A stretch of DNA of 26,075 nucleotides from Candidatus Heimdallarchaeota archaeon (GTDB lineage Archaea; Asgardarchaeota; Heimdallarchaeia; Hodarchaeales; Hodarchaeaceae). How positions within the stretch are numbered: the first letter of the stretch is position 1; each line of letters opens with the position of its first letter. Location: assembly GCA_048881705.1 (NCBI GenBank), contig JBHLSH010000056.1:1-26075 (forward strand). The letters run 5' to 3'. The notes beneath the pieces are model-generated. The model saw only the letters and a list, made by a program, of their open reading frames with translations. It ran no database searches and was not told the DNA's origin. Below are positions 64 to 5,238 of the stretch, piece after piece. The position numbers were made by a program, and so were the translations under genes.

Positions 64-996
64 TCAAAGGATAACCAAGAGTGAGGTTAGATACATAATG
101 AAAAAACCTAATACTAGTCCAAAGAAGTTCCATTTGTTTTTCTTAAAATCGTTTCCGATGTGAGAAGTAATATCGATAACGACCTTCAAAAGCGAACCAG
201 CAGCTAGTGCAAAGAAAAATAATGCAACCCCATTGGAAAAGACAAAAATTCCCAGTAAACTTCCAACAATCGTTGGCCCTCCAGCTAGAAGTCCAAATAT
301 AAATAGCGTTCGATAGTTAACAGTAGATTTTGACACTGGAGCAGTAATGGCAAGTCCTTCAGTAACATTATGGATCGCAAAACCAAAAATTAGTACAGTA
401 GCCAAGGTAATATTGCCGGTTCCATATGCTACCCCCACTGCTAGACCCTCTCCCAAATTATGAAGGCCAATACCAAAGGAAATTATGGCTGCTAATATAA
501 ACGGGGGGGATAGATCTTCTATTCCAAGTAATGATAGTTTATTGCCAGAATTCTTGGCTTTTGACGTTTCCTTTTCATCCTCTGCCGTTTTCTTTGATGA
601 TTCCGCTGATTTTACCAGTGTTTCAATGAATATTAAAATGCCCAAGCCAGCCGTGAACCCTAAAAAGAGTATAGCAGGCCCAAGAAAAAACACGATATCT
701 TGATTTCTCGAGATTAAATCAAATAGCATTCGATCTAATAATGGTACAGTGGCTTGTCCGTCTGCGGGGATCTGCATTCCCGCAGGTAATTTATCTGCCA
801 TTTCTATAGACTCTGCTACTACATCTACAAACAGGAATACGAGTACACCCAAGGAAATACTAACAACGACATTCAACCACTCTCTTGAAAGGCGTTTAAG
901 TAAAGGTAGAAAATAAAAACCTAAAAAAACTGGGACTAGGCCAACGTAGAGACCCAAGAGAACTCCTATGAATGTCAATTGACCGAAATCTGCCAT
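64..996 (-). CDS. ZIP family (ZupT/GufA-like) divalent metal transporter
   Basis: 310 aa, about 8 hydrophobic segments; ZIP TM4/TM5 signatures GLHNLGEGLAVG and AIHNVTEG; AGGTG SD-like motif upstream; last gene of the mntR-MCO-MCO run. Confidence 0.92.
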   Translation of the reverse strand: MADFGQLTFIGVLLGLYVGLVPVFLGFYFLPLLKRLSREWLNVVVSISLGVLVFLFVDVVAESIEMADKLPAGMQIPADGQATVPLLDRMLFDLISRNQDIVFFLGPAILFLGFTAGLGILIFIETLVKSAESSKKTAEDEKETSKAKNSGNKLSLLGIEDLSPPFILAAIISFGIGLHNLGEGLAVGVAYGTGNITLATVLIFGFAIHNVTEGLAITAPVSKSTVNYRTLFIFGLLAGGPTIVGSLLGIFVFSNGVALFFFALAAGSLLKVVIDITSHIGNDFKKNKWNFFGLVLGFFIMYLTSLLVIL

Positions 997-1031: not shown

Positions 1032-2018
1032 CTATTCTATGACCGTAAACTCGCCTATCATCCCAAGAACATCATGCTTGGGTATCCCACATATATATTT
1101 TGAGTCCATAAGTTCGGTAGCTTCTAATATAAAGTCACCGAACTCTAAAGCCCCGAATAGAACACTTTTACGATCTTCTCCAGTTATCGAATCTCTCCAA
1201 TTTATACTGGGTATGAATATATCGTGATTTGAATTCGGACCCACATTGATAACACGGAACCTGATCCTTTCGCCTAATTTGAACACATAATGGGGAGTGT
1301 AAGGATATATTTTCCCATTAAATGTCATATAGGTCGGTCCCTGAGTAACTTCAGCTTCGAATTCGGATTCTACCAAGATTATCTCGTGATCTGCTTGAAT
1401 TGGATCATTTTTCCCGTAAACGATCAGCGCACCGAACAACCCTCTTTCGATACCCTCTCCGGATTCAGGTATCGTAATGTTTTGGAGAATTATTACTTCA
1501 TCTAGCTCGGCTACTGCGTCATGATATGCCCAGGTACCTACTGAAGTGTCGTTAGCGTAAAGTGTATACGTATACGTTCCCCCAGGTACCGCAAACGAGC
1601 TGCTCATGAAAGTTCCATCGCTTCGGAATTCCCTGGCCAAGCCATGGGCATGAAAACTCACAATTGTACTCAGTCTGTTCTCCAAAGTGAGGATTAATGT
1701 ATCTCCTTCATTTAAACAAATGTGTGGACCGGGGATGGTCCCGTTAAATGCCCATCCAATAAATGACTGGCCAGGTGCCACCTCCCAAACAACTGTTTCC
1801 GCGACAAGACTTACTTCTTTAATAGGTTCATCCGATATACCCCCACAATCAGATTGGGGTTCAGAATGAGAGCCGATGTGGCCTTCTACGTTTTCAAAAC
1901 TACCACTTGGAGTAGGAAAGATCATCTGCGGGGTATAGAGAATAAATCCTAAAAGAAGAACCAATCCTAAGATAGTTCCAAATAAACTTTGCACTTTCCT
2001 ATTATCTAATCCCGTCAT
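1032..2018 (-). CDS. Two-domain multicopper oxidase-like protein (MCO-B), membrane-anchored; retains domain-1 T2/T3 His and domain-2 T1 ligands only
   Basis: Cupredoxin motifs WAFNGTIPGP, SFHAHG, WAYHD, ERGLFGALIV, TFNGK; T1 pattern H...C-x4-H-x4-M (NHD...ICGIPKHDVLGM). Start moved from 2072 to ATG 2018, which forms an ATGA overlap with the upstream stop (2015-2017) and is followed directly by a hydrophobic anchor. Confidence 0.85.
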   Translation of the reverse strand: MTGLDNRKVQSLFGTILGLVLLLGFILYTPQMIFPTPSGSFENVEGHIGSHSEPQSDCGGISDEPIKEVSLVAETVVWEVAPGQSFIGWAFNGTIPGPHICLNEGDTLILTLENRLSTIVSFHAHGLAREFRSDGTFMSSSFAVPGGTYTYTLYANDTSVGTWAYHDAVAELDEVIILQNITIPESGEGIERGLFGALIVYGKNDPIQADHEIILVESEFEAEVTQGPTYMTFNGKIYPYTPHYVFKLGERIRFRVINVGPNSNHDIFIPSINWRDSITGEDRKSVLFGALEFGDFILEATELMDSKYICGIPKHDVLGMIGEFTVIE

Positions 2019-3064
2019 AACCCGCTTTCCTCCATGAGTTGCATAACATACTGAATCGGATTTCCTGTCCAATCACTGGGGATAACTGAGAGCATTCCTG
2101 TCATCCCAGCAGCAATATGGTCATAAATGTGGCAATGATACATCCATAATCCAGGGTTTTTTGCAATGATCAACCGGTCAATTGCCTCTCCTGGTAAAAG
2201 CAGTTCATTGTCAAGGGTACGATTCCCTTCATCTCTCCAGGTATGACCATGAATGTGCGTTGTATGAGGATCCCCTTTGTCTCCAATGTCTATGTTTATA
2301 GCCCGGTACCTAATTCGTTCCCCTTGCCGGAAAATGTAATGTGGAGCATATGGATAGGCACCCCCATTTTGAACTGCAAAGTAATCGTCGTTGTTTGTGA
2401 TCGGGGGTTTAAACGAATCTAAAAAGACTACTACATCATGAGCGGGAAATGGCTCGACGCGATCGTAAATAATGAACGCTCCATATAAACCTCGTTCAAC
2501 ACTTTCATTATTTAACACGTCGAGGTTTACATTATTCTCCGTTAATCCTTTAAATGCAACCATATCCCTATATATCCAAGTACCTTCTCTATTTTGCGGA
2601 ATTCCTATCGTAAGAACCTCAGTTTCCTGTGATGGTATTGATACGCGACTAAACGTATCGTTTACACGCTGTCGAGTAACTGGTTGGACCACATCAATGC
2701 TGATAGGTTCCGCCAAGTTGTTAGTAACTGAGAACTCAACCGTATCGTTTTCATAAACTCCCAGTGTAGGTCCAGGTATCGTTCCATTAAATGTCCATGC
2801 TGTAAAATATTGGCCTGGAGCCACTTCCCATTCAACCTCTTCTACAATAAGAGAAAATCGACGAATTTGAGGAGTAGAAGAGGGATTTACAAATATATCA
2901 GGCTCGATATGCGAGTCTAAATGTCCATCGAACGTTACATTCACAGATTCTTCATTTGGAAGAAATATCTGCGGAGTTACGACTTCAAAAATAACTAACC
3001 CGATAAATAGGATCGTAACTACGAAGAAGTTAAGCTGAATTCTATTCCCAGGTTTAATCAACAA
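2015..3064 (-). CDS. Two-domain multicopper oxidase-like protein (MCO-A), membrane-anchored; complete domain-2 ligand set, domain-1 His lost
   Basis: WTFNGTIPGP, HTTHIHGH, WMYHCHIYDHIAAGM (SLAC-like type B two-domain MCO); N-terminal hydrophobic helix; TTG start. Confidence 0.9.
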   Translation of the reverse strand: MLIKPGNRIQLNFFVVTILFIGLVIFEVVTPQIFLPNEESVNVTFDGHLDSHIEPDIFVNPSSTPQIRRFSLIVEEVEWEVAPGQYFTAWTFNGTIPGPTLGVYENDTVEFSVTNNLAEPISIDVVQPVTRQRVNDTFSRVSIPSQETEVLTIGIPQNREGTWIYRDMVAFKGLTENNVNLDVLNNESVERGLYGAFIIYDRVEPFPAHDVVVFLDSFKPPITNNDDYFAVQNGGAYPYAPHYIFRQGERIRYRAINIDIGDKGDPHTTHIHGHTWRDEGNRTLDNELLLPGEAIDRLIIAKNPGLWMYHCHIYDHIAAGMTGMLSVIPSDWTGNPIQYVMQLMEESGL

Positions 3065-3098: not shown

Positions 3099-3518
3099 TC
3101 ATGCAGTTGCTAATTCAATATTTGGAAATGGGCGTCCGTGAGGACAATGAAGAGGGTTTTCTAGTTTTTTTCTTAATTGTTCAATTACTCTGTCCGAAAA
3201 CGCATGTTCAAGCCGGTGAGCCTCCTCGTGAACTGAATCTAAGTCGAGACCCAAGAATTCATGCAAAAACACCTCGATAATTCTGTGTTTTAATGTTAAT
3301 TTGGCACCGATCTTCAGTCCTCTCGCTGTAAGTACGATTGGAGAATAATTAGTCTTTTGTACCAAATTTCGCTTTGCAAGGGATGTTACTCGCTCTGAAA
3401 CAGTAGATTTCGCCAAATCCATGTATTGTACAAGATCCTTGATCTTTATTTCTCGGCCCAGTTCTTCTGTTAACCGATAAATCGCCCTTAGGTAATCTTC
3501 TTGGGTTCGCGTTACCAT
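3099..3518 (-). CDS. mntR: DtxR/MntR family metal-dependent transcriptional repressor (short form, no FeoA/SH3 domain)
   Basis: EDYLRAIY, HTH, KHRIIEVFL, EEAHRLEHAFS, CPHGRPFP; 139 aa. Confidence 0.92.
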   Translation of the reverse strand: MVTRTQEDYLRAIYRLTEELGREIKIKDLVQYMDLAKSTVSERVTSLAKRNLVQKTNYSPIVLTARGLKIGAKLTLKHRIIEVFLHEFLGLDLDSVHEEAHRLEHAFSDRVIEQLRKKLENPLHCPHGRPFPNIELATA

Positions 3519-3538
3519 AAGTTCGTACTTACGAACTT
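3519..3538. promoter_or_regulatory. Perfect palindromic operator AAGTTCGTA-CT-TACGAACTT, probable MntR/DtxR autoregulatory box
   Basis: 9-bp perfect inverted arms with a 2-bp spacer directly abutting the mntR start codon; AT-rich TATA-like stretch at about 3539-3548 on the minus strand, consistent with a leaderless transcript. Confidence 0.8.
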
Positions 3539-3732: not shown

Positions 3733-5238
3733 ATGGTAAAATCACAATTGGGAGAAATTAGATTGAGACCAAGCGGATGGGCCAAAAATAGTAGTGTTGG
3801 AATTTCGGTACTCTTTCTATTCATCCTCCCGATTTTATTTGGTTCTTACTCTTTAATTCTGGAAAGATATCGTTTAATAAACGAGAAGATTGAAAAAAAA
3901 CCTGTTCTTAAGGAGAAAAATCCGTCAAGGTATAACTACCATCCGCCCATTAAAATTGAGGGAAACTGGGAGGCTGTAAGCACGGCCACAAATGAAAACT
4001 GGCCTGGGAACGGAACGTTGGCATCACCGTATGTAATCCAAAATTATAACATTACTACCCGGCCATCTATGGATTGGGGCGATGTTTTAATCGGGATTAC
4101 AGACACGGATTTATACTTTATAATCAGAAATTGCTTTTTAAAAGGAGGATATATTGGGATTCGGTTAGATAATGCATCAGGTGTTCAGATCTCAAATAAC
4201 GTCTTGATAAACAACTATGCGAGTGTTGAACTGAGCTCGGTGGGAAAAAACGAGATATTAAACAGCAGCATAATTGAATGCAGGGGTAATGGAGTTTTTC
4301 TTTTGTATTCCGGAAAAAGCTCCATTAGGGGAAACAAATTTTCTGACATTCTGGGAACGGCTATTTCCTTGTGGAATTCAGGTGGTAGTATAATTTCTCA
4401 TAATATAATAGCCTCAATTTGGGGAGATGGCATAAGCCTGAGAACATCTGGAAATAATACGATTATTAATAACGTTTTGCTGAATAGGGGTATCACGATA
4501 AGCGGTTCAAGTATCAGTGACTTTATACAGAACCTAGTAGACAATAATACGTTGAATGGGAAATTTTTGGTCTATATGCAGAATTTAGACGGAGTTACTG
4601 TCCCAATGGATGCCGCGCAAGTAGCTATGGTAAATTGTACTAATATTATATTGGAGAGTCGTTATCTTTCCAATGTTTCAATAGGTGCTTTGGTCGCGTT
4701 TAGTTCTGGAATCGAGATCGTGAGAAATGTCATATCAAATAACATTAGAATCGGTATATCCTTAATTAACGTTACAAAATGCGTCATTTCTGATAACATC
4801 ATTATCTTAAACCACGGAGACGGGATAAAACTCTACAAGTCAACCGACTGTCTTATAACAAACAATACCTTTACACAAAATGTCCAGAGAGGGATTTCCC
4901 TTTTCTATTCCCAAGGAAACTCCATAACCTGGAATAAATTCATTGAAAATAGTCGGGGGACAGTTTCTCAAGCCTTCGATGACAGCAATCGAAATACTTT
5001 TGCATATAACTACTGGAATGATTGGATATCACCTGATTTGAATCAGGATGGCCTTGTAGATTTACCTTATGCTGTTGATGGACACACTGATAACCAAGAT
5101 CGTTTTCCCCGTACCTCGCCGACGGGACGTCTCAGTGAGGGGCCCGATTTTCGTTTTATGATAGTTTCCGCTCTTATAGTAACTATTGCCGTTCTCCTAA
5201 TCCTTCCACGAGTTAAAATCAGGCTTTTTGGGGATTGA
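3733..5238 (+). CDS. NosD/CASH right-handed parallel beta-helix surface protein with C-terminal membrane anchor
   Basis: N-terminal hydrophobic segment, WPGNGTLASPYVIQN, many GI.L..S..N.I.NN.I repeats, NYWNDW..PDLNQDGLVD.PY motif, C-terminal TM helix. Confidence 0.85.
   Translation: MVKSQLGEIRLRPSGWAKNSSVGISVLFLFILPILFGSYSLILERYRLINEKIEKKPVLKEKNPSRYNYHPPIKIEGNWEAVSTATNENWPGNGTLASPYVIQNYNITTRPSMDWGDVLIGITDTDLYFIIRNCFLKGGYIGIRLDNASGVQISNNVLINNYASVELSSVGKNEILNSSIIECRGNGVFLLYSGKSSIRGNKFSDILGTAISLWNSGGSIISHNIIASIWGDGISLRTSGNNTIINNVLLNRGITISGSSISDFIQNLVDNNTLNGKFLVYMQNLDGVTVPMDAAQVAMVNCTNIILESRYLSNVSIGALVAFSSGIEIVRNVISNNIRIGISLINVTKCVISDNIIILNHGDGIKLYKSTDCLITNNTFTQNVQRGISLFYSQGNSITWNKFIENSRGTVSQAFDDSNRNTFAYNYWNDWISPDLNQDGLVDLPYAVDGHTDNQDRFPRTSPTGRLSEGPDFRFMIVSALIVTIAVLLILPRVKIRLFGD

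Follow-up and report, generated by a model that had tools for sequence, protein, structure and literature searches.

A paralogous pair of two-domain multicopper oxidases with complementary copper ligands in an archaeal ZIP permease operon: a candidate heteromeric enzyme

Two adjacent, paralogous multicopper oxidase (MCO) genes, MCO-A and MCO-B, are located on contig JBHLSH010000056.1 of assembly GCA_048881705.1, which belongs to an Asgard archaeon. The complete 26,075-nt stretch that was analysed is referred to as the window, and all positions are given relative to it, while L- and P-numbers denote comparison loci and proteins. The pair is part of a set of four co-directional genes on the minus strand. 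In the order of transcription, these encode a DtxR/MntR-family metal-dependent repressor (3099..3518, 139 amino acids (aa), lacking an SH3/FeoA tail), the two-domain multicopper oxidase subunits MCO-A (2015..3064, 349 aa) and MCO-B (1032..2018, 328 aa), both predicted to be membrane-anchored, and a ZIP-family divalent-metal permease as the last gene of the operon (64..996, Pfam Zip 1.9e-17). The motifs described below are on the same strand.

Both oxidase reading frames are intact. The TGA stop codon of MCO-A and the start codon of MCO-B overlap in the sequence ATGA, and a GGAGG is found about 10 nt upstream of the MCO-B ATG. Based on these two features, the start of MCO-B was placed at 2018 and not at an upstream TTG. 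The proteins share 33% identity (E 1e-49). MCO-A exceeds the Pfam cut-offs for Cu-oxidase_3 and Cu-oxidase_2. MCO-B matches Cu-oxidase_3; its second domain remains under the Pfam cut-off, yet the protein aligns over its full length to two-domain laccases. Each protein has a single N-terminal hydrophobic segment preceded by basic residues (transmembrane segment at aa 11–29, 2978–3034, in MCO-A and at aa 9–27, 1938–1994, in MCO-B), which suggests that the chains are anchored in the membrane and that their copper domains lie on the outside of the cell. The anchor is followed by a G-H-x3-H motif in MCO-A (aa 47–52, 2909–2926) and by a G-H-x3-H...C motif in MCO-B (aa 46–58, 1845–1883). The gene overlap, the paralogy, the common anchor and the common motif had all been listed in an earlier reading of this DNA (the original prediction) and were recovered here.

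The copper ligands are distributed between the two chains in a complementary manner. In MCO-A, the type 1 (T1) copper site (H267, C311, H316, M321) and four cluster histidines are all located in domain 2. They belong to an H-x2-H-x-H motif (aa 267–274, 2243–2266), which provides H267 to the T1 site and H270 and H272 to the cluster, and to an H-C-H...H...M motif (aa 310–321, 2102–2137) with H310, C311, H312, H316 and M321. Domain 1 of MCO-A has no cluster histidine, as both motif 1 (aa 121–126, 2687–2704) and motif 2 (aa 163–167, 2564–2578) are lost. MCO-B has three cluster histidines in domain 1, namely H123 and H125 of an H-x-H motif (aa 123/125, 1641–1658) and H166 of a Y-H-D-A motif (aa 165–168, 1515–1532), in which A168 takes the place of the fourth histidine. 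Its domain 2 retains only the T1 ligands, with H265 in a degenerate motif 3 (aa 264–271, 1206–1229) and C310, H315 and M320 within 1059–1094. The neighbours of C310 are Ile and Gly, so that no histidine adjoins the T1 cysteine and the T1 site of MCO-B is unwired. Neither chain carries all eight cluster histidines. Counted as domain 1 plus domain 2, there are 0 + 4 in A, 3 + 0 in B, 3 + 4 in single-gene relatives of the pair and 4 + 4 in the outgroups. This split was the central claim of the original prediction, and every motif quoted there is present at its given position. When the own genome was searched with MCO-A as query, no third MCO was detected.

The second histidine of cluster motif 2 is replaced by Ala, Ser, Leu or Thr across the entire family in the ligand alignment, including the single-gene forms. 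The G-T-W-x-Y-H-x-(H) spacing in the family agrees with the general MCO motif 2; the absence of the eighth histidine is therefore not an alignment artefact. The nearest relatives with eight histidines are P0154, P0159 and P0161. Judged from the alignment, the family is a seven-His lineage, and the seven-His state is a family signature and not a defect of this copy. The caveat of the original prediction that MCO-B has lost one canonical ligand is correct and extends to the whole family.

Every paired A and B protein has the G-H-x3-H...C segment behind the anchor, whereas the single-gene forms lack it. The cysteine of this segment and a second cysteine following a P-G-P motif (C101 in MCO-B, within 1716–1733) occur together in 60 sequences and are jointly missing in the three A proteins of Thorarchaeota and in the two single-gene forms, the first position being a gap in the latter. 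This co-occurrence suggests a disulfide, which perhaps tethers an extra metal site.

The A-B-ZIP triad was found in constant order in 18 loci of Thorarchaeota, Marine Group III (MGIII), an intermediate clade and Marine Group II (MGII); the marine archaea among these are abundant. These include a second Thorarchaeota genome (L017), MGIII Poseidoniia (L006, L018, L019), the intermediate clade (L033, L035) and MGII Poseidoniales/Thalassarchaeaceae (L008, L010, L013, L020–L022, L024–L027, L034). The ZIP gene lies directly 3' of B in every locus with sufficient flank, and a DtxR/MntR-type repressor gene precedes the pair in the window, L017, L006, L018, L019 and L034. Across the loci, A and B mostly overlap by 1–8 nt or abut, which suggests translational coupling.

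The operon was detected in 2 of 400 sampled Asgard genomes, both of one genus, and in 1 of 21 congeners. It was present in 6 of 301 sampled species genomes of Poseidoniia, many of which are incomplete, and metagenomic clusters of the family reach 186 member sequences. The closest relatives of the pair are MGIII and MGII proteins, with the nearest relatives of B found in MGIII at about 60% identity.

Ligand positions were compared in 69 aligned sequences, comprising 65 family members and four eight-His outgroups. The family members include 32 B proteins, 31 of which have domain 2, and 26 A proteins, 15 from the Thorarchaeota/MGIII/intermediate branch and 11 from MGII. All 32 B proteins have the H,H + H set in domain 1, and all 31 with the second domain have only the T1 set H,C,H,M there. 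The complete domain-2 ligand set is present in 26/26 A proteins. In the Thorarchaeota/MGIII/intermediate branch, the domain-1 histidines of A are lost and replaced by variable residues (15/15). All 11 A proteins of MGII keep H,H + H in domain 1 and with it the full 3 + 4 histidine set of the family. The T1 ligands are invariant within the A family and within the B family. Column conservation in B ranges from 0.92 to 0.99 for the domain-1 motifs and from 0.66 to 0.74 for the domain-2 motifs. The domain-2 motifs of A yielded values of 0.80–0.97 (0.93–0.97 for the H-C-H motif), and motif 1 of domain 1 in A of Thorarchaeota and MGIII a value of 0.49. The expectation that the complementary pattern recurs in other genomes holds for the loss in B and for the loss in A of the Thorarchaeota/MGIII branch, but not for A of MGII. 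Since the latter retains its domain-1 histidines, full complementarity is a late, derived and lineage-specific state.

In the phylogenetic tree, the family (support 97/98), the B clade (98/92) and the group of B with the single-gene forms (98/97) were recovered. The A proteins fall in two clades (100/99 and 100/100); monophyly of A was not rejected (approximately unbiased test, p = 0.49). The subtrees of A and B both divide into Thorarchaeota plus MGIII on one side and MGII on the other. These matching splits fit one old duplication after which both copies were retained, and they exclude simple decay. Read from the ligand alignment, the loss of ligands is stepwise: first in B, across all lineages, and later in A, within a single branch.

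In two single-gene relatives from metagenomes, P0018 and P0134, the 3 + 4 histidines are on one chain. A ZIP gene follows P0018, and a gene of 140 aa lies upstream of it. Domain 1 of the single-gene forms is 53–61% identical to that of B versus 32–48% to that of A; their domain 2 is slightly nearer to A's. A tree of domain 2 only placed the single-gene forms beside B (support 82), with the outgroups scattered. The axial T1 position of P0134 is Glu and not Met, which was seen in that sequence alone.

Fused A-B forms were sought among longer proteins, and only an unrelated Streptomyces MCO was found, which is weak evidence. A separate case is P0156 (L037:1601–3769, 722 aa), a metagenomic open reading frame that encodes two two-domain MCO units joined by a Thr-rich linker, with two hydrophobic segments. 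Its N-terminal unit retains all four domain-1 histidines, but neither the cluster ligands of domain 2 nor the T1 cysteine; in the C-terminal unit, domain 1 is dead and domain 2 complete. Identity between the two halves is 32%, and their nearest match is an eight-His relative. For this reason, P0156 looks like an independent, fused instance of a complementary split, known from a single 3.8-kb contig.

The A/B complex was predicted as a two-chain model in three runs differing only by seed. The model scored 0.86, compared to 0.00 for the best control; 58 of 80 solved complexes attained that mark, as did 2 of 110 mismatched pairs. At least 81% of the contacts are common to the three runs, and the predicted local distance difference test (pLDDT) values of the partners are at least 87. 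On the A side, the modelled interface covers residues 266–322, including H270, H272, H310 and H312. On the B side, it covers 125–140, 158–161 and 180–191, including H125 and the invariant ESGEGIE loop, part of a PESGEGIERG segment that is invariant in B (aa 184–193, 1440–1469). In solved two-domain MCOs, the cluster sits between two units (PMC11761707). The modelled face between domain 2 of A and domain 1 of B is oriented such that the two half-sites would meet. The original prediction had argued that neither protein can build a cluster as a homotrimer and that such a face could; the ligand maps, in which each chain has one half-site only, agree with the first part and the modelled heterodimer with the second.

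A heteromer of A and B, with the cluster at the interface of B domain 1 and A domain 2, is the best reading of these results, with a probability of roughly 0.65. The reading draws on the ligand maps, their conservation, the synteny and the modelled interface. The two proteins would be the subunits of a single two-domain multicopper oxidase that is extracytoplasmic and tethered to the membrane and is probably active only as the mixed complex. We infer an assembly in the form of a SLAC-like ring containing both paralogs, with A2B or AB2 as the stoichiometry. The O2-reducing copper cluster, built from seven histidines, would form only where domain 1 of B (H123, H125, H166) meets domain 2 of A (H270, H272, H310, H312). 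A's own T1 site would deliver electrons to it via the Cys311-His diad, and the T1 site of B, which lacks a Cys-His link, may offer a further point of electron entry or relay.

According to this proposal, one old duplication was followed by complementary losses at both faces of the interface. The domain-2 cluster ligands of B would have been lost first, in all lineages, and the domain-1 ligands of A later in the Thorarchaeota/MGIII branch, where the heteromer would thereby have become obligatory. In MGII, the retained domain-1 histidines of A argue for at least one A-to-A interface. The oxidase is presumably co-transcribed with the ZIP permease under the control of the DtxR/MntR-type repressor. 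Its most likely substrate would be a metal ion, Fe(II), Cu(I) or Mn(II), oxidised at the cell surface for metal acquisition or homeostasis, and this oxidation would be coupled to, or would protect, ZIP-mediated uptake. The chances are about even for the more far-reaching version, in which a pseudo-threefold ring of two paralogs has T1 sites in all subunits but just one interface with a seven-His O2-reducing cluster, so that ceruloplasmin-like asymmetry is reached by complementary degeneration without fusion, and in which this ZIP-linked uptake system is widespread in planktonic MGII and MGIII and reached a few Asgard genomes by transfer.

Several points weigh against the mixed complex. The complementarity is not universal, and in MGII, A could function as a homotrimer, B being an accessory protein. 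With seven of the eight canonical cluster histidines, a classical trinuclear cluster is not assured. As homotrimers of related enzymes have been solved, the favourable model score may reflect likeness to, or memory of, SLAC-type trimers. Because A and B are paralogous, homo-rings might score equally, and the model cannot tell a hetero-ring from homo-rings. Two orientations are possible, which gives the modelled one a prior of 50%, and the runs vary by seed only. The complex itself is a prediction from sequence and model, and no tested feature points to the substrate metal.

An alternative that is unlikely, though it has to be taken seriously, accepts the association of A and B and differs in the nature of the site. 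The interface would then not be a classical four-electron O2-reducing trinuclear cluster, but a copper- or metal-binding complex of lower nuclearity that hands metal to the ZIP permease, either as a seven-His site or with B mainly relaying electrons via T1 or docking metal. The family-wide absence of the eighth histidine, single-gene form included, fits this alternative, as do the constant adjacency of the ZIP gene and the extra G-H-x3-H...C motif by the anchor, which is restricted to paired A and B proteins. However, neither the seven ligands nor A's Cys-His diad vary across a deep divergence, which is the pattern expected of a working wire from T1 site to cluster, and there is no sign of a different chemistry.

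Rather improbable is an arrangement in which A and B each form a homo-oligomer and have different functions. B3 would then combine its T1 sites with mononuclear sites of three histidines, A3 would be an oxidase in MGII, with another role in Thorarchaeota and MGIII, and the genes would be neighbours only because both products serve the ZIP system. A of MGII, with its full 3 + 4 set, could indeed be self-sufficient, and the three domain-1 histidines of all 32 B proteins could in principle hold one copper. Yet an A homotrimer in Thorarchaeota or MGIII would present four invariant cluster histidines without partner ligands, and their strict conservation would be left unexplained. B has no histidine beside its T1 cysteine and hence no wire to any site. 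The overlap of the genes and the model, which joins A domain 2 to B domain 1, also speak for a mixed complex of A and B and against separate rings.

The original prediction had further proposed an unfused analogue of, or intermediate on the line to, eukaryotic ceruloplasmin and hephaestin, preserved in an Asgard archaeon. The analogy fits, provided that a mixed ring forms: the ligand map, which would comprise one cluster and a T1 site in every unit, parallels that of the first and last two-domain units of ceruloplasmin. In ceruloplasmin and hephaestin, a single cluster lies where the first domain meets the last, every second domain has a T1 site, some of these T1 sites are unwired, and the inner T1 sites of ceruloplasmin are extra electron-entry or relay sites. 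These proteins form a pseudo-threefold ring in which most interface sites are lost, a likeness that applies here only if the mixed ring forms. The differences are that their six domains are fused and all eight histidines present, whereas two genes of 349 and 328 aa are found here.

A direct line of descent, by contrast, is very improbable. Ceruloplasmin is the top-ranked Protein Data Bank (PDB) sequence for A, but this rank is a sum over three repeats; its best single stretch reaches 47.8 bits, compared to about 105–117 bits for two-domain laccases, which are also the best PDB matches of B. A special kinship to ceruloplasmin was therefore rejected, and an Asgard ancestry of the operon was rejected as well in view of its patchy occurrence in the phylum and in the genus (see above) and of the closest relatives in MGIII and MGII. 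No fused form of the family was found among the longer proteins, weak as this evidence is. The published scheme for the six-domain oxidases has fusion preceding site loss (PMC3600357). In the present pair, sites were lost with the genes still unfused, which makes the resemblance to ceruloplasmin convergent; it is an analogy and not ancestry. Finally, canonical ligands are lost in both proteins, but a decaying duplicate with one or both genes as non-functional remnants is hardly credible given the intact reading frames, the T1 ligands and retained half-sites that are invariant across Thorarchaeota, MGIII and MGII, the persistence of the split in orthologous pairs, and the retention of both copies since a duplication predating those lineage splits.

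The closest known systems are the type B two-domain MCOs (SLAC 3cg8, Ssl1 4m3h, 8aip/9ix9, 3gdc), which are the best PDB matches (A scores about 105–117 bits over a single aligned stretch, B about 110 bits). Common to both are two cupredoxin domains, the T1 site in domain 2, and cluster ligands on those faces of domains 1 and 2 that meet between neighbouring chains of the ring. The known enzymes are homotrimers encoded by one gene with all eight histidines, while here two paralogous genes contribute one face each, with seven histidines in total. In addition, both chains have an N-terminal anchor and the extra G-H-x3-H...C motif and are encoded in a ZIP operon. To our knowledge, all characterised two-domain multicopper oxidases are homotrimers. 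In the literature searched, we found no description of a two-gene or heteromeric two-domain MCO, nor of an MCO in MGII.

Nmar_1354 of Nitrosopumilus maritimus (9cck) is a two-domain MCO ring of three non-identical chains (PMC11761707). Its asymmetry arises from one gene product with and without an extra cupredoxin domain, and clusters are present at all of its interfaces. In the MCO1-ZIP pairs of ammonia-oxidising archaea, a two-domain MCO gene directly adjoins a ZIP (zinc/iron) permease gene, as observed here. For these pairs, oxidation of the metal (Cu(I)) before uptake has been proposed without a test, and Cu uptake has been suggested since the genes respond to Cu limitation (PMC7785015). 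They differ in that a single MCO gene with all three copper centre types is described, and neither a DtxR/MntR repressor nor a split into two subunits. Fet3p-Ftr1 likewise combines a membrane-tethered MCO with a metal permease, co-produced under a metal-responsive regulator; Fet3p has three domains, though, and its permease Ftr1 is an Fe(III) channel, whereas the permease here is a ZIP protein for divalent ions and the coupling is putative. Copper nitrite reductase (NirK), which has its T1 site in domain 1 and a three-His T2 site wired by a His-Cys pair, was considered and rejected: the T1 site is in domain 2 in both A and B, B lacks the histidine adjacent to the T1 cysteine, and NirK chains are only lower-ranking PDB matches.

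The repressor matches the Pfam families Fe_dep_repr_C (4.9e-25) and Fe_dep_repress (1.3e-10). Its best NCBIfam matches are MntR and DtxR models, and as every one of these is below the cut-off, Mn and Fe specificity are not separable by NCBIfam. The MGIII repressors (L018:2365–3021, L006:652–1305, L019:2368–3024) are about 218 aa long and have an FeoA/SH3-like tail. They score 170 bits on the MntR model, far above the 139-aa version of Thorarchaeota, yet below the cut-off. For the permease (Pfam family PF02535), the best NCBIfam match is ZupT, also below the cut-off.

A perfect 9 + 2 + 9 palindrome at 3519..3538 abuts the ATG of the repressor gene. It has one match in the window, compared to zero expected, and its 16-bp core is unique within the own 3.96-Mb genome. 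The outer arms GTTCG...CGAAC are retained upstream of the orthologous repressor gene in the congener L017 (about 2373–2388). The palindrome is a candidate operator of the DtxR/MntR-type repressor, which would imply autoregulation of the operon. Beyond it, at 3733–5238 on the plus strand, a divergently oriented gene encodes a 501-aa protein that has right-handed beta-helix/NosD-like repeats and is hydrophobic in segments at either end.

Should the heteromer be real, a ring of unfused chains could arrive at ceruloplasmin-type asymmetry when ligands are lost in complementary fashion from both faces of an interface. Because the intermediate stage, with B degenerate and A complete, survives in MGII and a single-gene form exists today, natural proteins would allow a direct test of how an obligate heteromer arose step by step. 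The enzyme would in that case define a seven-His variant of the copper cluster. We know of no cultured representatives of MGII and MGIII, and for these archaea the proposed metal oxidase would provide the first candidate function for a conserved operon.

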